Shown here piece by piece: positions 22,814 through 59,938 of a stretch of 64,000 bases of DNA. Numbering within the stretch: the stretch's first letter is position 1; each line of letters begins with the position of its first letter. Origin of the DNA: Escherichia coli. GTDB lineage: Bacteria; Pseudomonadota; Gammaproteobacteria; Enterobacterales; Enterobacteriaceae. The translations under genes and the position numbers were made by a program. The notes under the pieces were generated by a model, which worked only from the letters and a program-made list of their open reading frames with translations, was not told the origin of the DNA and did no database searches. Where the stretch lies: the NCBI RefSeq assembly GCF_030013205.1, contig NZ_CP122648.1. One strand, written 5' to 3'.

Positions 22814-24196
22814 TTATCCCACCAGCATCCAGGTCGCCGGAACTGAGGCAATTAACAGCATGCCAATTAGCACCATTTCCTGACGGTTCAGTACGTTATC
22901 ATGTGTATGCGTTTTACGCGCATACAGGAAAACCAGCAGCCCCGGCGCATACAGAACAACGGATAACAGCAAGTGCATTGGACCAGAGGCGTACAATAAC
23001 CATAAGCCATAAATGCAGGCACCGACACCTACCGCTTTATGCAGTGGACGGGTTGCGATTTTCAGCAAGAACGCGCCGACCAGGAAATAGGGCACCAGAA
23101 TCATTTCTGAGGCGATGGTCAGCAACGTGTTGTAATCGGAACCGGTCAGCCAGATGAGTACCAGACAAATTTGCACGCAGATGTTGGTCAACCACAGTGA
23201 GGCGGATGGCGCAGCTTGTGCGTTCTGGCGCGCAAAAATGCGCGGGAATGCTTTATGAGTGGCGGCCAGGAACGGAACTTCTGCCGCCATGATGGTCCAG
23301 CTTAAGTACGCGCCGCAAACGGAAACGATCAAACCGGCAGCGATGATGATTTCGCCCCATGGTCCCATCATTTCCACCATCAGACCGGCCATTGACGGGT
23401 TACGAATTTCAGCCAGTTCAGGACGTGCCACCACGCCCAGCGAAAGCAGCGTTACCAGCAAGTAAACGCCCAGAGCGGAGAGAACCGCCAGCAGTGTCGC
23501 TTTGCCAACATCACGTTTATTACGCGCACGCGCAGAAACAACCACGGCACCTTCCACACCAATGAAAACCCACAGGGTGATCAGCATGGTGTTTTTCACC
23601 TGTTCCCAAACGGGTACGCCAAGTGCAAGTCCGGTGAAGTCGAGCTTGAAGGTATCCAGTTTGAACATCATCATCGCCAACACAACAAACAGACCCAGCG
23701 GCAACAGTTTTGCCAGTGTTGCCACCAGGTTAATGCTGGCAGCGGTTTGCACCCCGCGCAGGATCAAAAAGTGAACAATCCACAATAAAGCCGATGCACC
23801 GACGATCGATTGCCAGGTATTACCATCGCCAAACAGGCGCAATTCCGGCGTGTCCGTAAAAAAGCTTAACGCGGAAAAAACGATCACCAGATAGGAGACG
23901 TTGGCGATGACCGCGCACAGCCAGTATCCCCATGCGGAACAAAAGCCGATTAGCTCGCCAAACCCTTCGCGGGCATAGGTAAAGATACCGCCGTCAAGTT
24001 CGGGACGAATGCGCGTGAGGATCAGCATGGCAAAGGCCAGCAATAAAATGCCTGCGCCAGTAATACCCCAGCCGATGAGCAGTGCTGCCGGGCTGGCAAC
24101 TGCCGCCATATTTTGCGGCAGACTGAAAACACCCGCGCCCAGCATTGAGCTTAATACCAGCGCGGTGAGTGCGCTCAGTCCCAGTTTCTTTTCCAT
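22814..24196 (-). CDS. ydgI: APC-family putative arginine:ornithine antiporter YdgI
   Basis: 460-aa polytopic ORF recognised as YdgI/ArcD-like. Confidence 0.9.
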   Translation of the reverse strand: MEKKLGLSALTALVLSSMLGAGVFSLPQNMAAVASPAALLIGWGITGAGILLLAFAMLILTRIRPELDGGIFTYAREGFGELIGFCSAWGYWLCAVIANVSYLVIVFSALSFFTDTPELRLFGDGNTWQSIVGASALLWIVHFLILRGVQTAASINLVATLAKLLPLGLFVVLAMMMFKLDTFKLDFTGLALGVPVWEQVKNTMLITLWVFIGVEGAVVVSARARNKRDVGKATLLAVLSALGVYLLVTLLSLGVVARPELAEIRNPSMAGLMVEMMGPWGEIIIAAGLIVSVCGAYLSWTIMAAEVPFLAATHKAFPRIFARQNAQAAPSASLWLTNICVQICLVLIWLTGSDYNTLLTIASEMILVPYFLVGAFLLKIATRPLHKAVGVGACIYGLWLLYASGPMHLLLSVVLYAPGLLVFLYARKTHTHDNVLNRQEMVLIGMLLIASVPATWMLVG

Positions 24197-24332
24197 CGAT
24201 ATCCAGTGATTAAAACGTGATAAGAAGAATAAATATTAGGGCAAAACGCATAAAAATGGAGTTTGCCACTGAAGCGCGGGATTTTACGAAGAGATGTGTC
24301 TGCATGCAATGGTCGCGGGGAAATTTGTGACT

Positions 24333-24361
24333 AAAAATGCGAAAGGCGGCATCAAGCCGCC
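24333..24361 (-). terminator. Rho-independent terminator after ydgH
   Basis: Minus strand: GGCGGC-TTGAT-GCCGCC followed by TTTCGCATTTTT. Confidence 0.6.
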
Positions 24362-24381
24362 TTATAGGAGTAACTGAATAG

Positions 24382-25326
24382 TTATTTATACAGATCTGCG
24401 CTGACGGTCAGGTTATTACCACGTTCCTGCCACTGGCGGGTGATGTGGTAATACTTAGCACCTTTCTTCGCGGCACGTTTCGCAACCTGATAGGAGACTT
24501 CGGTCATGTTGCCGTAGTTGCCAGAGAATTTGATGCTGTCGAACGGGACCATCATCGCTGCGGTCGCTTTGTTCAGTTCTTCGACTTTAGTGCCATCCGG
24601 GAGCGTGACGGTGTAACGCCCGCCTTTTGATGACTGGGTTTCAAAGAAGCGACCGACTTCAGAACTTGGTGATGCGGTAGTCGCAACACCCGGGATCTCA
24701 ACTTTCTTCGCGGCTTCGCCACCGGCAGCCAGAGCTGCACGTCCTGCTTCGGAATCTGCCGGGATCACATCCGGGCTCTGGACGATACGTTTCTTAGCAT
24801 CTTTTTTATAGATGAATGCAGTAATACGCTGGTTGCCGCCCTGGTTGGCATCGATTTGACGAACGATGTAGAAAGAGTAGGCACCTTTCGCTTTTGCCGC
24901 TTTGGTGATGGCATCATTGACTTCTGGCTGGCTACGATAAAAGCCCTGGACGGTGACCGTGTCAAACGGTTCAATCAGAACGGCCTGATCTTTCGGCAGT
25001 TCGACAACTCCGTTAATTACGCGATTACTTGTTTCTTCTGCTTTTTCAGCATCGGCTTTATAGAGGTCAGCGACCACACGCCAGTTACCGCTGTTACCAA
25101 AATCAGAAGTGTCGACAACATAAAAAGAGGCGGCACCTTCTTTATCTGCGCGACGAGAAACGGCTTTCACCGCTTCGCCAATAGCATTAAAACGACCGGT
25201 AACCACTACACGGTCAAAAGGTTTAACCGCTGCCGCTTGCTCCGGTGTCAGTTCTGTTGCTGCGTTAACGGAGAATGCCGTAGCAGAAAGCAGTGCCGAC
25301 GCCAGGAGGGTGTTCTTAAGCTTCAT
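24382..25326 (-). CDS. ydgH: DUF1471 (YdgH/BhsA/McbA-like) periplasmic protein
   Basis: 314-aa ORF with signal peptide and three internal repeats; recognised as YdgH. Confidence 0.9.
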   Translation of the reverse strand: MKLKNTLLASALLSATAFSVNAATELTPEQAAAVKPFDRVVVTGRFNAIGEAVKAVSRRADKEGAASFYVVDTSDFGNSGNWRVVADLYKADAEKAEETSNRVINGVVELPKDQAVLIEPFDTVTVQGFYRSQPEVNDAITKAAKAKGAYSFYIVRQIDANQGGNQRITAFIYKKDAKKRIVQSPDVIPADSEAGRAALAAGGEAAKKVEIPGVATTASPSSEVGRFFETQSSKGGRYTVTLPDGTKVEELNKATAAMMVPFDSIKFSGNYGNMTEVSYQVAKRAAKKGAKYYHITRQWQERGNNLTVSADLYK

Positions 25327-25786
25327 AAAAATAATCCTTCGCCTTGCGCAAACCAGGTACTGGTATTGTTATTAACGAGAAACGTGGCTGATTATTGCAT
25401 TTAAACGGTGTAACTGTCTGCGTCATTTTTCATATCACATTCCTTAAGCCAATTTTAATCCTGCTCAAATGACCGTCTATGCTTAAAAAACAGCCGTATC
25501 AGCATCAATACTACTGAAGCAACTGAATTGTATAAGTTAATTTAATGTTAAGTAGTGATTCGTGCCGGGGCGATGTCTCGTTTTACCCGACCGTCGAAGA
25601 CAATTATCAGTCTTTATCCAGCGTTCTAAGGTGTTTATCCCACTATCACGGCTGAATCGTTAATATTTTGCGAGTTCACGCCGAAATACTGATTTTTGGC
25701 GCTAGATCACAGGCATAATTTTCAGTACGTTATAGGGCGTTTGTTACTAATTTATTTTAACGGAGTAACATTTAGCTCGTACATGA

Positions 25787-27382
<1,596 letters not shown>

Positions 27383-27389
27383 GGGGTAA

Positions 27390-28781
<1,392 letters not shown>

Positions 28782-28783
28782 AC

Positions 28784-28814
28784 GTGACGGCCTCTGCAGA
28801 GGCCGTCACTCTTT
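28784..28814. terminator. Bidirectional terminator hairpin between convergent pntB and tqsA
   Basis: GTGACGGCCTC-TGCA-GAGGCCGTCAC followed by TCTTT; overlaps the tqsA stop. Confidence 0.65.
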
Positions 28815-29840
28815 ATTGAGATCGCTTAACAGAACGGCGATGCTTTGACCTCCCGCTGTTTGTTCAAGCGCAATTTTGACAATAATTGTCAACGGCACGG
28901 AAAGCAGCATACCCACCGGTCCTAACAACCATCCCCAAAAAATCAACGACAAAAATACCACCAATGTGGAAAGCCCCAGCCCACGCCCCATGATGCGTGG
29001 CTCCAGAATATTGCCGAAGACCAGATTAATCAGCAGATATCCCGCCAGCACCAGCAACGCTTCGTAGAAGCCATTAAACACCAGTACCTGAGCGATAGGG
29101 GGGATTGCCGCGAGAACTGAACCAATATTAGGGATGTAATTAAGCGCAAAGGCCAGCAATCCCCAGACAAAAGCGAAGCGAACATCGAGTGCGGCGAGCA
29201 TCGCCCAGGCGACCAGGCCGGTGATGATGCTGATGGCTGTTTTCAGCACCAGATAATGAGAAACACTGTCAATCGCACGCTGAATCGCCGCCATCCCTTC
29301 AACCGGACGCGCCATCATTTGCTGAAATTTTCCGGGCAATTGTGGCACTTCGAGCAGCATAAACAGCACCGTCAGCAGCAATAAAAATATTGATGACATG
29401 GCATTAGATAACTGCGTCAATAAGTTGGTGAGCAACGTCATCGCCGCGTTCGGATCAATGTAATGCGCCAGTTGGTCAACTGAGACATCAATCCCTACGC
29501 GTTGCAACAACGGTTCAATCGCTTGCAGCGGCGTCATAATAGAGTTGCGATATTGCGGTAACGTCCGCGTCAACTCGTTGAGCGCGGAACCCAGATAAGC
29601 TAACAGCAACACCATCGCCATCACGATGATGGTCATCAAAATCGACACCGCCAGTACACGCGGCACTCGCCAGCGGACCATGTGTTGCACCAGCGGGTTA
29701 AGAATAACAGCAATAAATAATGCGAGAATAAACGGCACGATGATCTCGGCGGCAAAACGGATACCGCAGAGAATAATGACCAGCATTCCCAACATAATGA
29801 CGATTTTTAGGCCATTGAGCGTGATGATCGGCTTTGCCAT
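28806..29840 (-). CDS. tqsA: AI-2 exporter TqsA (YdgG)
   Basis: 344-aa polytopic ORF recognised as TqsA. Confidence 0.92.
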
Positions 29841-30251
29841 GCTTGTCCCCGTTTTTTCTTCCTTTGCTAATAATAATGTCTTTTTCGCTCCGTCATCATA
29901 ACGAAAATCAAACCGCTCAGGTAAAGAAGTGAAAATATTTTGAGTTAATTCTTAAGCTATGATACAAATCAGGCGTGTTCAACTACCGAGGACAATTATC
30001 ATCCGCGATGACGAGAAGCAACACTGCGGATAATTGTAATATTATGGACAATTTGTTCAGGACGTTATTTTCTACATTTACCCATCTTCGTACCTCATCC
30101 ACTATCTTGCTCGTAGGTGAGCAGCACTGGCGCAACGCGCTTTAGTCCTTTCTTCTGCCAAAGCTTGCGCTAAGCGCGGGGCTTGACCACTTTACTTTGG
30201 TTTCGCTGAATTAAGCGAAAATTAAAATAATTCTCTTGCAGGAGAAGGACA

Positions 30252-30617
30252 ATGTATATTTATTGGATTTTATTAGGCCTGGCTATTGCTACAGAAATTA
30301 CCGGTACGCTGTCCATGAAATGGGCGAGCGTCAGTGAGGGAAATGGCGGCTTTATTTTAATGCTGGTGATGATTTCTCTGTCGTATATATTTCTCTCTTT
30401 CGCCGTTAAAAAAATCGCCTTAGGCGTGGCTTATGCGCTGTGGGAAGGTATCGGTATTTTATTTATTACCTTGTTTAGCGTTTTGTTATTCGACGAAAGT
30501 TTATCGCTGATGAAAATTGCCGGGTTAACCACCCTGGTGGCCGGGATTGTATTGATCAAATCAGGTACCCGTAAAGCGCGTAAACCTGAACTGGAGGTGA
30601 ACCATGGCGCAGTTTGA
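30252..30617 (+). CDS. mdtJ: SMR-family spermidine exporter subunit MdtJ
   Basis: 121-aa 4-TM ORF recognised as MdtJ. Confidence 0.92.
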
Positions 30618-30933
30618 ATGGGTTCACGCCGCCTGGCTGGCATTGGCAATCGTGCTGGAAATCGTTGCTAACGTCTTTTTGAAATTTTCTGACGGCTTTC
30701 GTCGCAAAATATTTGGCTTGCTCTCCCTGTCGGCGGTGCTGGCTGCCTTTAGTGCGCTTTCTCAGGCCGTTAAAGGGATCGACTTGTCTGTCGCTTATGC
30801 ATTGTGGGGCGGGTTTGGTATTGCCGCCACGTTAGCCGCAGGTTGGATCTTGTTTGGTCAACGGTTAAATCGTAAAGGCTGGATTGGCCTGGTCTTGCTG
30901 TTGGCTGGAATGATCATGGTGAAACTTGCCTGA
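30604..30933 (+). CDS. mdtI: SMR-family spermidine exporter subunit MdtI
   Basis: 109-aa 4-TM ORF overlapping mdtJ by 14 nt; recognised as MdtI. Confidence 0.92.
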
Positions 30934-30971
30934 TGAACACGCTGCCCGCGCTGTCGGGCAGCGTTTGAACA

Positions 30972-31793
30972 TTATTTTTGCGACAGTTGATCCAGCCTGT
31001 CGCGAAAACCGGTAACAGAAATGGCCCGGTTATCGGCGCGCCAGCGATCTTTCGCGGCAGGAGCCGAACTTTGCACCCCAATTAATTGCCAGCCGTCATC
31101 GGTATGCAACATCAGAGGCGAACCGCTGTCACCCGGCAAGGTATCGCACTGATGCGACATCACCGACGTTTGCGCCCAGCCAGTCACTTCACAGTTTTGA
31201 TGACTGTACAACGTATCGAGATGATCTTCAGGGTATCCCGCCTGAGTCACTTTACGACCTGCCGCTTTTAATGCGGCGGTAAGCGCGGCTTTATCTCCCT
31301 CAAATAACGGCAATGGTGTAATGCCAGAAGGGGGATTACGTAGCACAATCAAACCGAAGTCCCACGGCGCAGCTGCGGGAGGAACAATCCAACCATCCCC
31401 ATCTGCTTTTAACCGCTTTCCCAGTGTCGGGTCAACGCGGCCTTCTATGTCGTGGATCTCATAGCGCCAAAGACCTTTATTTGACACAAAACGCAGCGCC
31501 ACCGCTTTATCGGCTTTACCCTTTGGCGGCGTCAATAAACAGTGTCCTGCCGTTAATGCCAGATTGGGTGCAATCAGCGTCGCTGTACATAAATTGCCGC
31601 TGGCCGTTTCCAGTTGCCCAACCGCATCCCACGGTGATTGGGTCGTGTCATTCACTGGCACACGATCATCATGACCAAAAAACAGGGTGCTGACCTCATC
31701 GTTTGCCGATTTGGCAACGTCTGGTTTATCTGCAAACACAAAAGCAGACGTCAAACTAATTGCACCCAACACTACAGCAATGGTTGTACGCAT
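30972..31793 (-). CDS. ydgD: trypsin-like (S1) serine peptidase YdgD
   Basis: 273-aa ORF with signal peptide and TAGHC / GDSGSP catalytic motifs. Confidence 0.9.
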
Positions 31794-31892
31794 ATCACAC
31801 TCTGGTGGGTAATTATGATTATTAAAAGCAAACCCTCATAAATACTATAGACGGGACGGGATGAAAGTGGGAGTAAAATCAGATAACTACGA

Positions 31893-31976
31893 TCAGGAAA
31901 GATAAAAACGGGCGGCAATCAGTGCGCATAAAATAAGGATGATAAGAATGAACTCAAAGCGATAACGGCCCACCAT
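31893..31976 (-). CDS. ydgU: 27-aa small membrane protein YdgU
   Basis: Hand-translated minus-strand ORF MVGRYRFEFILIILILCALIAARFYLS with GGAGGG 6 nt upstream; below the ORF-track size cutoff. Confidence 0.7.
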   Translation of the reverse strand: MVGRYRFEFILIILILCALIAARFYLS

Positions 31977-32068
31977 ACTACCCTCCGCTAAAGGCGGTGC
32001 TAAACGTTATCCGCTTAGCACCGTAATTTTCAGGCGCGAGGGGGCGCGCCAGCATTACTATTGATAAC

Positions 32069-32377
32069 TTACGCTGCGGGTTGTGCTGCAGGTTTTGCCG
32101 GTTGCTGATGGCTGTGTTTCTTGGCGTGTTTCTTCGCTGCCTGCGCTTTTTGTTCAGGAGCTTTCTGTTCAGCTTTGGCATTTTTATGATGCTTTTTAGC
32201 CGCCTGCGCTTTCTGGGCAGGTGCTGCTTTATGCTGTTTTTTATGATGTGTGGTTTTCGCCGGCGCTGCTTTGGTGGTCGTCGCAGTCGGAGCAGGTGTG
32301 GTCGCAGTCTCTGCAGCAAAGGCAGCAGAAGACAGACCCATAGCAGCGGCAACAACCAGAGCTAATACTTTTTTCAT
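32069..32377 (-). CDS. asr: acid shock protein Asr
   Basis: ORF trimmed to ATG at 32375-32377 (MKKVLALVV...) giving 102 aa; Lys/Ala/His-rich repeats. Confidence 0.92.
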
Positions 32378-32800
32378 TGTCATACCCTCAATTTGTTTTT
32401 TCATTTAACCCCACTGCGGGGCCGTTGAAATAACTATATCCCTGGGAATGGCAGACTTCCGTGAGTGGTTGGTTTCAGCGTGTAACGATATGTACAAACG
32501 CTGAATAAATTACAGCGTTGATAATAACGTATTGTGACTTAAGGGAAATTTAGCTACCAATAATAGTAGTCTTGATCAGGTTAACTATTTTACTACTTAC
32601 AAAGCGGTAGAATAACTGCGCATCAGTAATAAATGACACACAGCAAAATGAATCCGTTTATTTGGGTACTTATAATCCTGATGACGCTAGATGCGCTGCG
32701 GGAATTGGCTGGCGCTTCGTCTATTTTAGGATGGCTATTAACGTTGGTTTGAGCAGGCAATAAGTCCGGATGGGTATTTACCGCAGTCCGGACTTATTTT

Positions 32801-34054
32801 TCAGGCGTGCAGACGACGATGCAAACGCGTCCCGACCAGCAGAGCAATGACCAGCATCAGAGCAATAAATGCGCCGACGCCGTTCCAGCCATAGTTATGC
32901 CAGAAAACACCACCCAGCGTCCCGGCAATACTCGACCCCAGATAGTAACTGAACAGATACAGCGAGGAGGCCTGGCCTTTAGCGCGTTTTGCGCGGGGGC
33001 CGATCCAGCTGCTGGCTACTGAGTGGGCTGCGAAGAATCCGGCTGAGAAGAGTAACATTCCGGCAAAGATCAGCCACAGCGAGCTAAATAAGGTCATCAG
33101 TAAACCAAACAGCATAACCCCCGTCGAAAACAACATCACCGGACCGCGCCCATAGCGGGTGGTCATGGTTCCGGCTTTGGGGGAGCTCCATGTACCGGTC
33201 AAATAGGCCAGCGATAATAAGCCAACCACGGCCTGGCTGACATGCCAGGGAGAGAGCATCAACCGATAGCCGATGTAATTAAACAGCGTGACGAACGACC
33301 CCATCAGCAAAAAGCCTTCTGCGAACAATAACGGTAATCCCCGGTCACGCCAGTGCAGACGAAAGTTGATGAATAACGTCTTAGGGCGCAGTGAAGTCGG
33401 GCGAAAATGGCGTGATTCCGGGAGGATTTTCCAGAACATCAACGCCGAGGCCAGCGCGAAACAACCGATTGCCGCCAAAGCAATTCGCCAGTTGAAAAAG
33501 TCCGTGAAGACACCGCTAATTAAGCGTCCGCTCATACCGCCAATTGAGTTGCCGCTGATATACAACCCCATCGAAAAGGCCACGAAACTGGGGTGGATTT
33601 CCTCGCTAAGATAAGTCATGCCAACAGCTGCCACGCCACTTAACGAAAGCCCAATCAAGGCGCGCATAATCAAAATGCCGTGCCAGCTGGTCATCATTGT
33701 CGAAAGTAACGTACAAATGGAGGCCAACAGTAGCGCCGTGACCATCACTGGTTTGCGACCAATGGCATCGGATAGCGGGCCAGTAAACAGCAAACCGATA
33801 GCCAACATCGCCGTTGAAATGGACAGTGAAATACTACTGTTAGCAGGCGTTAAGCCAAACTCCTGCGAAAGCACCGGAAGGATAGGTTGCACACAATAGA
33901 GAAGTGCGAAGGTTGCCAGTCCGGCAGAGAAAAGCGCCAGGGTGACACGCATAAATTGCGGCGTACCGCGTTTAATAAATTGATTTGGCTGAGAAATGCT
34001 TTGCTTGTCAGTGTCGCTTGCCGGAGCGCCATCAACAGTTGTAGTACGGCTCAC
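32801..34054 (-). CDS. ynfM: MFS transporter YnfM
   Basis: 417-aa 12-TM ORF recognised as YnfM; divergent from ynfL. Confidence 0.9.
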   Translation of the reverse strand: MSRTTTVDGAPASDTDKQSISQPNQFIKRGTPQFMRVTLALFSAGLATFALLYCVQPILPVLSQEFGLTPANSSISLSISTAMLAIGLLFTGPLSDAIGRKPVMVTALLLASICTLLSTMMTSWHGILIMRALIGLSLSGVAAVGMTYLSEEIHPSFVAFSMGLYISGNSIGGMSGRLISGVFTDFFNWRIALAAIGCFALASALMFWKILPESRHFRPTSLRPKTLFINFRLHWRDRGLPLLFAEGFLLMGSFVTLFNYIGYRLMLSPWHVSQAVVGLLSLAYLTGTWSSPKAGTMTTRYGRGPVMLFSTGVMLFGLLMTLFSSLWLIFAGMLLFSAGFFAAHSVASSWIGPRAKRAKGQASSLYLFSYYLGSSIAGTLGGVFWHNYGWNGVGAFIALMLVIALLVGTRLHRRLHA

Positions 34055-39288: not shown

Positions 39289-40143
39289 TTAACCTGCAAT
39301 AGCCATTCCTACCGTCATGTGCAGGCCATAAAAGAGCACACGCCCGATCATCTCACCGCCAAGTATGAGGATTAGCCCCAGAATAAGTCCGGCAACGTGA
39401 GGTTCACGGCGACGAATGAGCGGACAAAGCCAGCATCCTAGACCTGTGCATAACAATACCACACGCCAGACCTGTAAGGAGGCGTAATCTGGTACCAGTG
39501 CGCTGGCTTGTTGTACGGATGAGTGAATAGACGCCAGAGACAAACCTTGCAGCACAATCACCCCGGCACAAGCGATCAGCGCCAGAACGCTAATGATGGC
39601 AAATGTTGTGGTATTAAATGTAACGCGGGCTGCCCGCAGAATTGTGGCAGCAAGTATTGGACCGCTCAACAATACTGTCAGGAAGAAAGCCAGCGTAGTG
39701 TAACCGTTATACCAGGTTGGCACTGTGTCGATTTGATACACGCAGGTCATCATCCAGACGAAAATGACGCCGAGCGCCATGCTGACAAGTAACCAGAGTT
39801 TCCCCAACGCTTGCGGCATTTTACCGATGACCGCCACCAGCCACCATAATCCGCCAACGGCAAAAAATATGGAACCGGCAGCAATCTCGTTACTCAGACC
39901 AGAAGCTCCGATTCGATTCAGCGAGTTAAACGCCCGCAGTGGGGATCCCAGGTGCATGACAGAGGCAATAAACCCGATGCCCATCAACAGCCAGAGGAAA
40001 AACATGCCACGAACAATGTGCTGACGGTCTGCGTCATTTTTGGCGGCGAACCAGCCAATTCCGCTAACAATCAGCGCGCCTACTACGCATTGACCCAATA
40101 CGGTAAAGATAACCAGTGGCCATTCATGCCATCCATTTCCCAT
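39289..40143 (-). CDS. ynfH: DmsC-type membrane anchor subunit YnfH
   Basis: ORF track gives 364 aa; trimmed to ATG at 40141-40143 (MGNGWHEWPL...) giving 284 aa. Confidence 0.9.
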   Translation of the reverse strand: MGNGWHEWPLVIFTVLGQCVVGALIVSGIGWFAAKNDADRQHIVRGMFFLWLLMGIGFIASVMHLGSPLRAFNSLNRIGASGLSNEIAAGSIFFAVGGLWWLVAVIGKMPQALGKLWLLVSMALGVIFVWMMTCVYQIDTVPTWYNGYTTLAFFLTVLLSGPILAATILRAARVTFNTTTFAIISVLALIACAGVIVLQGLSLASIHSSVQQASALVPDYASLQVWRVVLLCTGLGCWLCPLIRRREPHVAGLILGLILILGGEMIGRVLFYGLHMTVGMAIAG

Positions 40144-55246: not shown

Positions 55247-55438
55247 TTAAAGACCTGCCGGGATTTCGATATTATCCTGGTGAATAACTTTATCGACCGG
55301 GTAACAGTTACCGGGAATTTTCTGTTCGGTTGCTGCAGTCATACACTCCTGCATTGTCCAGTGAACACTGACTGCAATATCAACTGGCTCTCCGGAAACA
55401 AGAAAAACTGTCAGAACAAGCACAAATGCTGAATTCAT
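55247..55438 (-). CDS. ydfD: Qin prophage small protein YdfD
   Basis: ORF trimmed to MNSAFVLVLTVFLVSG... (63 aa); ATG overlaps the dicB stop (ATGA). Confidence 0.8.
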   Translation of the reverse strand: MNSAFVLVLTVFLVSGEPVDIAVSVHWTMQECMTAATEQKIPGNCYPVDKVIHQDNIEIPAGL

Positions 55439-55623
55439 TGTGCACATCCTTTTGGCATCAGACGTAAACGAGCCAGCATTGAAACAATGCATATTTTATT
55501 TAATAGCTCCCGTTCTTGTTTTCTCTTGTTAATGGCATCTTCAGTAAATACTGGGTTACTGATAGTGACACCAATTTCAAAACAACCTTCAGACGTATTA
55601 ACGTTTGGTAATAACGTTTTCAT
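55435..55623 (-). CDS. dicB: cell division inhibitor DicB
   Basis: ORF trimmed to 62 aa MKTLLPNVNTSEGCFEIGVTISNPVF...; recognised as DicB. Confidence 0.9.
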   Translation of the reverse strand: MKTLLPNVNTSEGCFEIGVTISNPVFTEDAINKRKQERELLNKICIVSMLARLRLMPKGCAQ

Positions 55624-55797
55624 TATCGCGTCCTCAACAATGAATTTTGTGATGCAGTGCCTGGTGCCTCCAGGTGACGTTAACCAGTTAACAATTAACG
55701 CCGGATACAGAGAATCCACCCATAACACTGTTTTTGGTTTTAACTGTTCCGCGTGCGCTCAGCCGCATTCACCACATCACAAAATTCACTTTAAAAA

Positions 55798-55850
55798 GGG
55801 CAGCAGAGCAGTCACGGAGTAAAACTGATACCGCCAAACGTCACCAGAAA
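55798..55850 (-). ncRNA. dicF: DicF small regulatory RNA
   Basis: Minus strand reads UUUCUGGUGACGUUUGGCGGUAUCAGUUUUACUCCGUGACUGCUCUGCUGCCC followed by UUUUU; matches remembered DicF; sits between ydfC and dicB. Confidence 0.85.
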
Positions 55851-56190
55851 ATTGATAACAGAGGGCGTTGCAGCGGGGTTGTCACTTAAGCGTATGGTCA
55901 ACCTGACAACCCGGTGTCCTCAACGGGGAAGGAATAACCCCGCCATACTTACCGCCGCGCCATTTCGCGGGTTGCCACAACCGGAAGCGCACGGTCGACG
56001 AAAATTTAACGACAGGCTATCTATGAACCAGCTACCTCGCCGTGCGCTTTCGCGTTATGGTCTGACTTTTCAGGGAAATATCCTTTCAGTAAACTGTCAG
56101 TTCCGGATGCGCACCCGTGTCCGGCGCACGCACTCCACCTCACCCGTGGAGAACTCCTTAATTACTAACCTTAGCTTTGTTGATTAGCTA

Positions 56191-56409
56191 CTAACGCGGG
56201 TATGTAATCATTCTGGCAATGCTTAATGCCGCTGCTTTTTCCAGATTGGTGATATCCTGCTCCAGAGCGGACAGATTTTCAGCCTGCTTAGCCCTGGCTT
56301 CATTAGCCCATTTCAGATCCTGCGCTGCATTAATTTTCTGGCGCATCCACTCATAAAGTTCATCATCGGTATAGTCTGGCGCGATGATGACGGGTTCTCG
56401 TTTCTGCAT
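56191..56409 (-). CDS. ydfC: Qin prophage protein YdfC
   Basis: 72-aa ORF in the dicB operon upstream of dicF. Confidence 0.8.
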   Translation of the reverse strand: MQKREPVIIAPDYTDDELYEWMRQKINAAQDLKWANEARAKQAENLSALEQDITNLEKAAALSIARMITYPR

Positions 56410-56438
56410 ACTGATTCCTCGCGGTGCTGTTTCGCTTA

Positions 56439-56567
56439 TCAGCCGTTAGATTTTGCCGAACTGGAAAGCGCCTGTTTAAACTCACTGAAGCTGAGAGCTT
56501 CTTCGCCTTCGGCAAGGCCTTCGAAGTATTCTTCGTAAGCCTTTTCCATGATTGTGTCGAAATCCAT
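56439..56567 (-). CDS. ydfB: Qin prophage small protein YdfB (42 aa)
   Basis: Hand-translated MDFDTIMEKAYEEYFEGLAEGEEALSFSEFKQALSSSAKSNG*; below the ORF-track cutoff. Confidence 0.75.
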   Translation of the reverse strand: MDFDTIMEKAYEEYFEGLAEGEEALSFSEFKQALSSSAKSNG

Positions 56568-56890: not shown

Positions 56891-57298
56891 TTATCTTTTA
56901 TTTGTCCGCTGACGGGCTTTTAGTAATTCTTCAAAGAGTTTATTGAAGTTTTTTACTCGAGCTCGCATTTCGGCGAGCTGGGTATCCTGTTCTGATTCTG
57001 GCAGTGCATTAAACAGCTCAAGGAGCTCTAGTTCTTTGGGGGATAAGGCAACTGGCTTCTCAACAGGTGGTGTTGGTTGCTTGTCTTCATCGCCAAATAG
57101 AATCCATGTTGGTGAGCATTGCAATACTTTGCTGAGGGCAAAAAGGTTCTTCCCTGTAGGTTCACTATCACCCCGTTCCCATTGTGATACAGACACATGG
57201 GAGATTTTCAGGGCTTTAGCAAGAGAGCTTTGGGTGTGTTTGAGGTTTTTCCGACGATACCTGATGCGTTCGCCGATAGTTAAATTTTTTGTTTCCAT
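56891..57298 (-). CDS. dicA: XRE-family HTH repressor DicA (cI-like)
   Basis: 135-aa ORF with N-terminal HTH; divergent from dicC. Confidence 0.92.
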   Translation of the reverse strand: METKNLTIGERIRYRRKNLKHTQSSLAKALKISHVSVSQWERGDSEPTGKNLFALSKVLQCSPTWILFGDEDKQPTPPVEKPVALSPKELELLELFNALPESEQDTQLAEMRARVKNFNKLFEELLKARQRTNKR

Positions 57299-59604: not shown

Positions 59605-59938
59605 ATACAGCGAACTCCATTGGTTTAGTTGGATATTTACTGTGCTGGACAAAAACGGTTTGCGGGGAAATCTTAGTTAAGTAGAATGACTGCGGGTGCT
59701 TGAGGCTATCTGCCTCGGGCATGGACACCAACGGCAGATAGAGAAAAGCCCCAGTTAACATTACGCGTCCTGCAAGACGCTTAACATTAATCTGAGGCCA
59801 ATTTCATGCTAGACACATGTAGGTTAGCCTCTTACGTGCCGAAAGGCACGGAGAAGCAGGCTATTGTTAACACCAAGTTGTAATGTCCCCTTTGAACCAT
59901 TCTAAAATGTCCCCAGACAATTCTCTGGGGGATTTTTC

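Follow-up and report, generated by a model that had tools for sequence, protein, structure and literature searches.

The locus considered here raises the question of what occupies the long untranslated stretch between ydfC and dicF, in an operon that reads on the minus strand of a Qin-like prophage of Escherichia coli (contig NZ_CP122648.1; the window, whose positions are used throughout, is the whole analysed stretch of 64,000 nucleotides (nt)). Work on the dicBF operon of E. coli K-12 goes back to the 1980s, and the long untranslated region of this operon has been regarded as a passive precursor of the small RNA (sRNA) DicF (PMC5069750, PMC9438474). This region is now found to hold a strongly constrained, pseudoknotted RNA that was never annotated, referred to below as module C. 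A preliminary description, made from the sequence alone, had taken the spacer as untranslated RNA on the operon strand, which is borne out, as 55850-56190 holds no conserved open reading frame (ORF); it saw neither that strong constraint is limited to about 124 of the 340 nt nor that a discrete pseudoknotted module lies there.

Architecture and covariation of module C

Module C (minus strand, 55859-55982) is a four-way junction with an 8-base-pair (bp) terminal stem, P0, three hairpins and a 6-bp pseudoknot, the junction linkers being 3, 1, 0 and 1 nt long in this core type, called type 1. Its elements are the following:

55974-55981 with 55867-55874 (minus strand): terminal stem P0, GUUGUGGC with GCUGCAAC; 8 pairs, 4 of them compensatory, 94% paired
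55955-55970 (minus strand): hairpin P1, CCGCG-AAAUGG-CGCGG; 5 pairs, 98% paired
55943-55954 (minus strand): invariant junction CGGUAAGUAUGG, supplying strands of P2a and of the pseudoknot
55951-55953 with 55913-55915 (minus strand): helix P2a, GGU with ACC
55943-55948 with 55892-55897 (minus strand): pseudoknot, likely, GUAUGG with CCAUAC of the P3 loop; 100% paired
55924-55942 (minus strand): hairpin P2, variable in length and sequence; 3 of 5 pairs compensatory
55876-55912 (minus strand): hairpin P3, with a 9-bp stem GGGUUGUCA/UGACAACCC; 6 of 9 pairs compensatory

The evidence for this architecture comes from alignments of 29 representatives (A2) and then of 79 distinct copies aligned with a covariance model (A3); model R1 scores the module of the window at 146 bits. 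In A3, 95.6% of the pair cells hold standard pairs, against 34-55% when the partners are slid by 1-3 columns, and compensatory changes on both sides are seen at 15 of 38 pairs; an earlier count agrees with this one. None of 500 shuffles reaches any of the observed measures, although these statistics are not probabilities, because many copies are closely related. The stem of P3 is swapped for GGGUAACCA/UGGUUACCC in Izhakiella and for GAGUUGCCA/UGGCAAC in P1, while its loop is an invariant 19 nt, GGUUGACCAUACGCYURAG. As the frequent G-U pairs of P0 and P3 would read A-C on the opposite strand, the structure belongs to the transcribed one. About 40 columns are invariant, with unpaired positions and a pseudoknot far beyond the needs of a structural barrier, the apparent invariance of two anchor blocks being inflated by the exact-pattern seeding of the alignments. 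A comparison of nucleotide diversity among 17 collinear copies is confounded by mosaicism.

Regarding the pseudoknot, it is considered likely from its 6-bp complementarity and near-invariance, and is not graded as proven because the search pattern itself imposed part of the pairing. Its single variable pair is U-A, C-G or U-G and never C-A. An aimed search for variants gave two true ones, an A-to-G change that keeps a G-U pair and an A-to-C change that breaks the pair, the other eight matches being unrelated sequence, which gives weak support for the pseudoknot. In P2a, U-A becomes C-G in P7-type copies, in a column left free by the search pattern and as a single evolutionary event.

Folding of the spacer together with DicF, which the preliminary description had named as a check, is only modestly better than that of shuffles (z = -2.55), with z = -1.9 for the upstream 213 nt and z = -1.0 for module C alone. 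Because folding energy only modestly beats chance, the case for structure rests on covariation and not on free energy. The minimum-free-energy fold of the 124 nt alone recovers all the nested helices, P0, P1, P2a, P2 and P3. The GC-richness attributed earlier to the spacer holds in modest measure (0.529 for 55851-56190, with a window mean of 0.492, 0.477 for ydfABC and 0.424 for DicF-dicB-ydfD), and the excess is centred on 55859-55982 (0.597), the remaining spacer having 0.505. Likewise, the dyad CCGCGCCATTTCGCGGG singled out at that time is real and corresponds, at 55955-55971, to hairpin P1.

That the stretch is a small protein gene, or neutral sequence, is barely credible. A sense ORF of 36 codons (55882-55992, minus strand), which overlies module C and matches PHROG 8854, a family of unknown function, speaks for a protein; against it, the ORF ranges from 2 to 68 codons across copies, with three frames and C-termini, being cut to 6 codons in the cdtI-type and devoid of a start codon in the P1-type, so that it is frameshifted, shortened or startless in most copies. 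PHROG 8854 is probably built on spurious ORF calls, since its ORF is not conserved among the module copies. The 111-codon plus-strand ORF (55852-56187), already described as antisense to the operon, exists and is spurious, as it has no Pfam or PHROG match and crosses P2 with non-triplet indels. The core is 68-74 nt long, with P2 indels of 1, 2, 4 and 5 nt among copies, and substitutions follow the base pairs. Coding potential is ruled out on either strand by these substitutions, by the disruption of the sense ORF and by the lack of a family for the antisense one.

The module does not correspond to a catalogued RNA family. Rfam 15, searched over 55400-56500 at the gathering threshold and with E up to 10, returns no family over the spacer or the module, only DicF and a sub-threshold STnc100; the DicF model RF00039 covers 55798-55849 only, so that the spacer and module C lie outside the match, and there is no Rfam family for the sister types 2 or 3 described below. 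The core sequence is not printed in the papers examined; the older work of Faubladier and Bouché (1994) or the P1 genome paper may have noted similarity upstream of dicF.

Distribution, edges and sister core types

In BLAST searches against phages, only the ~120 nt directly 5' of DicF recur independently of the rest of the spacer, with identities of 89% in cdtI and Stx2c-converting phages, 86% in a phage deposited as an Actinobacillus phage, 82% in Salmonella phage F1055, 82% in P7 and 78% in P1. A pattern of two invariant blocks matches at least 120 contigs of IMG/VR, and the same approach finds copies in genomes of Escherichia albertii, Citrobacter, Trabulsiella, Serratia symbiotica and Izhakiella. 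Among complete E. coli genomes, module C is present in 4308 of 5426 (~79%), with up to 8 copies each and no annotated feature over any of them. It therefore links Qin, many lambdoid phages (converters for Stx2c and cdt among them) and P1/P7. As the copies of P1, P7, cdtI, F1055 and E. albertii have no Rfam match to DicF, module C has a much wider distribution than DicF. Each locus has a single copy, and on the cro side none was found in cdtI, 2H10, F1055 or the window; a 15-bit match at 39622-39704 of the window was rejected as a second copy, being due to chance, with P3 wholly absent.

In the phage deposited as an Actinobacillus phage, vB_Apl-pPE4, the 3' end of the module and the linker are repeated after the terminator (L002 2600-2720). 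The early region of this phage resembles E. coli Rac/Qin (DicA, YdaT, Kil, exonuclease VIII), and its host assignment consequently deserves checking.

The edges of the module are sharp. Over 116 distinct flanking contexts, the homology depth is 1.00 within 55883-55962 and ~0.60 just past 55982 and 55863, the module edges, and the upstream part of the spacer (55983-56190, 208 nt) is common to only 14-60% of these contexts, with recombination breakpoints at ~56170, 56148, 56130, 56070 and 55981. In the window, the spacer region is 99.5% identical to that of Qin in MG1655, and spacer and DicF together are 99.8% identical to those of the inducible phage PhiR42_1.

The terminal stem is found around other cores. 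Phage LLS, reported to lack N and for which its authors speculated on a put-like RNA (PMC12315714), has no module C; in its leader, the arms of P0, the GUGCGCU motif ahead of them and the linker and terminator past them are all retained, but the core of 120 nt is a different one, named type 2. This core occurs in at least 120 IMG/VR contigs, mostly with the same lambdoid leader layout, and is also seen in D6, a P1-like phage, and in Lastavirus phages of Klebsiella. A third core, type 3, has the same P0, so that the stem GUUGUGG...CCACAAC is common to types 1, 2 and 3. The copies located are these:

L157 5948-6082 (minus strand): type 2
L158 (D6) 2501-2615: type 2, 225 nt past a transfer RNA (tRNA) gene, tRNA-Met
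L161 2402-2523: type 2
L159 (SopranoGao) 2501-2629: type 2, in tandem with type 3
L158 (D6) 977-1122: type 3, with tRNA-Ser 4 nt past its end
L159 (SopranoGao) 2269-2362: type 3, upstream of the type 2 copy, the two being 138 nt apart

In the Klebsiella phage LASTA, a tRNA-Arg begins 3 nt past the end of type 2. In the consensus fold of type 2, a P0 of 8 bp is accompanied by a small hairpin rich in GC, by a helix around a variable insert and by a covarying hairpin in which G-C changes to A-U five times; a separate hairpin of 5 bp abuts the 3' strand of P0 with zero nt between. As modelled, the connectivity of type 2 is that of a tRNA with a long variable arm. Module C thus belongs, as one core type, to a larger set of phage RNAs that have the terminal stem in common and include at least two other types.

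Sharp edges and exchangeable cores would also be expected of a small mobile cassette acting as DNA, with 7-8-bp terminal inverted repeats (GTTGTGG/CCACAAC) and folding as a single strand, and such a nature is very improbable. Homology drops sharply at the inverted repeats, the cores are interchangeable and some copies adjoin tRNA genes, as this explanation would have it; the strict co-orientation with transcription disfavours it, as module C always lies on the transcribed strand of the surrounding unit. Moreover, a pseudoknot and invariant loops such as these typify RNA, and no transposase or target duplication was seen.

Operon setting and possible roles

The features of the locus, to which the possible roles of the module have to be related, are arranged as follows:

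56891-57298 (in the minus-strand prophage operon region): dicA, then ydfA/ydfB
56191-56409 (minus strand): ydfC coding sequence, an ORF annotated as ydfC in MG1655 and other genomes, whose stop codon marks the start of the spacer
55850-56190 (minus strand): untranslated ydfC-dicF spacer
55983-56190 (minus strand): upstream part of the spacer, mosaic and weakly structured, with local hairpins only
55859-55982 (minus strand): module C (type 1), a conserved structured RNA of 124 nt with a pseudoknot
55850-55866 (minus strand): AU-rich linker of 17 nt between module and DicF, placed by sequence, with RNase E dependence taken from PMC5069750 and PMC9438474
55798-55849 (minus strand): DicF sRNA (Rfam RF00039, 71 bits), with its terminator stem at 55798-55835 and U-run at 55793-55797
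55639-55790 (minus strand): long-range 21-bp stem, 55770-55790 with 55639-55659, just 5' of the dicB ribosome-binding site
55435-55623 (minus strand): dicB; next ydfD, next a gene for an 835-amino-acid exonuclease, then xis and int
55852-56187 (plus strand): spurious antisense ORF of 111 codons, with a TTG start

In lambdoid phages module C lies past the repressor gene, on the early-left transcript. A near-consensus promoter (TTGACA-16-CATAAT) stands directly after the cI terminator of cdtI, ~280 nt 5' of the module. In P1/P7, the module starts ~35 nt past the C1-controlled P1ban start site and is followed by tRNA-Asn, tRNA-Thr, tciABC, tRNA-Ile and ban, with a terminator after the module, 2.6 kilobases (kb) before ban; more generally, in P1-type contigs it heads an operon carrying tRNA-Asn, tRNA-Thr and tRNA-Ile/Met. 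The 'dicF-like region' annotated in P1 (record 68791-68892; L001 2553-2654) consists of the 3' half of the module and the leader terminator. An intrinsic terminator starts 12-57 nt past P0 in 80 of 85 distinct downstream flanks, with at least six sequence types and unrelated linkers. In Qin, the terminator hairpin after module C and the 15-nt seed preceding it are DicF itself, which starts 17 nt past P0. The terminator is internal to the operon, because ORF sequence in the 3 kb downstream lies mostly on the module strand in 72 of 74 contexts (90% overall).

This setting is compatible with a cis-acting processive antiterminator, similar in action to HK022 put or Bacillus EAR and not homologous to them, that would serve phages without N; such a role is possible, if doubtful. 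The nascent module would bind RNA polymerase, possibly with Nus factors, and permit read-through of the adjacent terminator (DicF in Qin) and of later ones, setting the ratio between the short terminated RNA and the full early-left transcript (dicB, recE, xis, int). In its favour, types 1 and 2 each occur in well over 100 lambdoid early-left leaders after the repressor gene, with a terminator next; the promoter of cdtI is PL-like, and the P1/P7 module stands between P1ban and the terminator ahead of ban. No N-like protein is found among the products of the first early-left genes (DUF2303, YfbR-like, DUF551, RdgC, DUF1391, DicB), and LLS is likewise reported without N (PMC12315714). The Ayreon operon has a further annotated terminator, the genes beyond the terminator are co-oriented, as seen above, and the 12-57-nt spacing with unrelated linkers suits a polymerase-bound RNA better than a structural switch.

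Compared to HK022 putL and putR, module C would act alike: it is a non-coding RNA, it stands in the early leader of lambdoid phages that have no N, and it would need no phage protein. Its size is of the same order (124 nt against ~74 nt). Unlike it, put has two adjacent stem-loops without a closing helix or pseudoknot (putL numbering checked against PMC9378689), as opposed to a four-way junction, and is present on both early operons, while module C is on one, with no second copy downstream of the rightward promoter. Homology to put was considered and rejected: the motifs GCGCGGCGG, ACCAUGCG and CGGGUU..CAGGNUGA are in common, but their order is permuted and the similarity is not significant, 12-25% of dinucleotide shuffles equalling the best local alignments to putL and putR; moreover, model R1 has no match in the HK022 early region (24000-34000). 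With lambda nutL and N, the module has in common the early-left leader position upstream of the first terminator and differs by lacking a canonical boxA, a small boxB-like hairpin and an N-like protein. No boxA consensus (GCUCUUUA-like) lies within 400 nt in 52 of 73 contexts, and none was found at a fixed position. Antitermination is also disfavoured by the related types, which stand in tandem and at 3-4 nt from tRNA genes and are followed by no terminator.

A loose motif, RGUGYKCUY, weakly boxA-like, is seen ~13 nt 5' of P0 in types 1, 2 and 3 (GUGCGCU, GUGCUCU, GUGUUCU), at ~55990-55998 of the window (minus strand). In Qin its bases have two possible partners, GCGCACGG, which lies ~40 nt further 5', and GAGCGCACG, on the 3' side of DicF. 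A helix bracketing module and DicF (CGUGCGC with a downstream GCGCACG) is possible in Qin, the same 5' motif also pairing upstream; in cdtI, the 3' partner of that helix lies within a local long hairpin.

The terminator that follows the module could also be governed by a riboswitch-like attenuator, in which the junction and pseudoknot would bind a metabolite or protein and decide whether the terminator forms; this is quite improbable. The size, the junction-plus-pseudoknot build and the invariant unpaired nucleotides are indeed aptamer-like, and riboswitches and the Bacillus EAR resemble the module in having a complex conserved pseudoknotted fold in or before an operon, ahead of a terminator. 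The attenuator is disfavoured because there is no conserved overlap of terminator and antiterminator: a CCGCCA/UGGCGG pairing is broken in the cdtI-type, where the position covaries with P0 instead, and the complementarity GGCGGUA/UACCGCC is not conserved across terminator types either. In addition, the spacing between module and terminator and the linker sequence vary, P0 is dispensable in P1-type copies, and the Qin module is intercistronic, ~0.9 kb from the promoter. Riboswitches thus differ from module C, which has neither an overlapping expression platform nor an Rfam match, and EAR is limited to Bacillales.

It is unlikely that the module only determines the processing or stability of the downstream sRNA, by positioning RNase E or shielding the precursor, with no role of its own. 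The RNase E-dependent 5' end of DicF (PMC5069750, PMC9438474) falls in the 55850-55866 linker, directly 3' of module C, and a terminator hairpin, a potential sRNA body, follows in 80 of 85 contexts, as this account would require. Against it, the module is conserved without DicF and with a linker of only 12 nt, and its invariant unpaired positions and pseudoknot exceed the needs of a barrier, as noted above. The suggestion of the preliminary description that the spacer may hold DicF-processing structures or something additional stands as to its second part, with module C; as to the first, the RNase III-type duplex sits downstream of DicF, outside the spacer. There, the DicF-dicB spacer forms the 21-bp stem (z = -4.2), whose end is 16 nt short of the dicB start codon and at which RNase III probably cuts to give the 72-nt DicF.

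Slightly favoured over antitermination, with both fitting most of the facts, is the reading of module C as an autonomous RNA, framed like a tRNA and cut out of the early transcript, of which DicF would be the 3' trailer; judged from sequence, structure and context, it is held tentatively, at somewhat less than an even chance. A stable product of ~115-125 nt would be released by two cuts, one made by an endonuclease (RNase P being a candidate) at the 5' side of P0 or ahead of it and the other by RNase E within the AU-rich trailer. This product would bind a host factor through the invariant junction and loop nucleotides. The cut that forms the 5' end of DicF, documented as RNase E-dependent (PMC5069750, PMC9438474), would be the trailer cut of module C. 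Meanwhile, the linker and terminator would represent the 3' external spacer of the unit, which in Qin-type prophages may have become the Hfq-dependent sRNA DicF. Excision would account for the way DicF is made, for the sharp P0 edges and for the exchange of cores, as well as for the copies in tandem and those that abut tRNAs.

Several known RNAs offer parallels to this excision. As in tRNA, a terminal stem of 7-8 bp closes a four-way junction with short linkers, the last arm would stack on P0 (in type 2), and the sister types 2 and 3 abut real tRNA genes; unlike tRNA, module C has no anticodon, T-loop signatures or CCA, its arms are much larger, and a pseudoknot stands in place of the contact between D-loop and T-loop. 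The E. coli sRNA 3'ETS-leuZ is reportedly cut from the 3' trailer of a tRNA transcript, and the parallel lies in an RNase E trailer cut that frees a terminator-bearing, Hfq-dependent sRNA, which would be DicF here. The species 1 and 2 RNAs of T4 (rnaC/rnaD) are stable phage RNAs of ~120-140 nt in tRNA clusters, of unknown function; by this description they are similar to module C, as phage structured RNAs of comparable size that are co-transcribed with tRNAs, T4 being virulent and unrelated. Lambda 6S RNA and StxS are short terminated leader transcripts doubling as sRNAs (PMC7547250), and resemble the present case in that a terminator right after a promoter-proximal phage RNA yields a short regulatory RNA (DicF here); they differ as by-products of Q/qut antitermination at the late promoter, with no large conserved fold.

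A number of observations weigh against excision. It leaves unexplained how the downstream genes are reached beyond the terminator, and we know of no report of an RNA species with ends at P0. Module C, type 2 and type 3 are recognised neither by ARAGORN, as tRNA or transfer-messenger RNA, nor by the tRNA model of Rfam. P0 is not recognisable in the copies of P1/P7, L038, L015 and L082, and the copies adjacent to tRNAs are of types 2 and 3, not of type 1. The terminator, 12-57 nt downstream, is retained in 80 of 85 contexts though its sequence turns over; this, together with the leader position in phages without N, suggests an action on transcription and not a free-standing RNA gene.

DicF is recast by these findings as part of an older unit, its trailer or terminator in one lineage, and a wider, undescribed set of phage RNAs with a common terminal stem is indicated beside tRNA genes. 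Module C is also a concrete candidate for the way in which lambdoid phages without N pass early terminators, a question raised in PMC12315714. It is conceivable, with considerable doubt, that module C and its sister types constitute a new class of RNA with a direct action on the transcription machinery of the host, which would be the early antitermination device so far missing. If so, this device would serve lambdoid phages that lack N (Qin/DicA-type, cdtI, Ayreon, Stx2c phages, LLS) and the ban operon of P1/P7, would be mechanistically put-like and structurally unrelated, and DicF would be a short terminated by-product of the control point.

Minor observations on the leaders and the prophage

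In leaders of the cdtI- and Ayreon-type (L004 2670-2770 and the equivalent in L156), a near-perfect hairpin of ~100 nt comes after the terminator, directly ahead of the first gene. It is reminiscent of the RNase III hairpin in the leader of lambda N, and its symmetry mimics a conserved small ORF. In the copies of F1055, Trabulsiella, Serratia symbiotica and Izhakiella (L005, L133, L135, L138), a long leader terminator hairpin encloses an AGGAGG, similar to a Shine-Dalgarno sequence, and a start codon. Regarding the region 55639-55790 of the window, its match to Rfam STnc100 scores 34 bits, below the 47-bit cut-off, and a similar match lies 5' of tciA in D6 (L158 1323-1443).

The 3' strand of the DicF terminator (55798-55812, minus strand) reads CUGCUGCCC here and CUGCCGCCC in K-12, one G-C pair becoming G-U. 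The same prophage also carries a sok antitoxin RNA, at 59694-59865 of the window (plus strand; Rfam RF01794, 104 bits).

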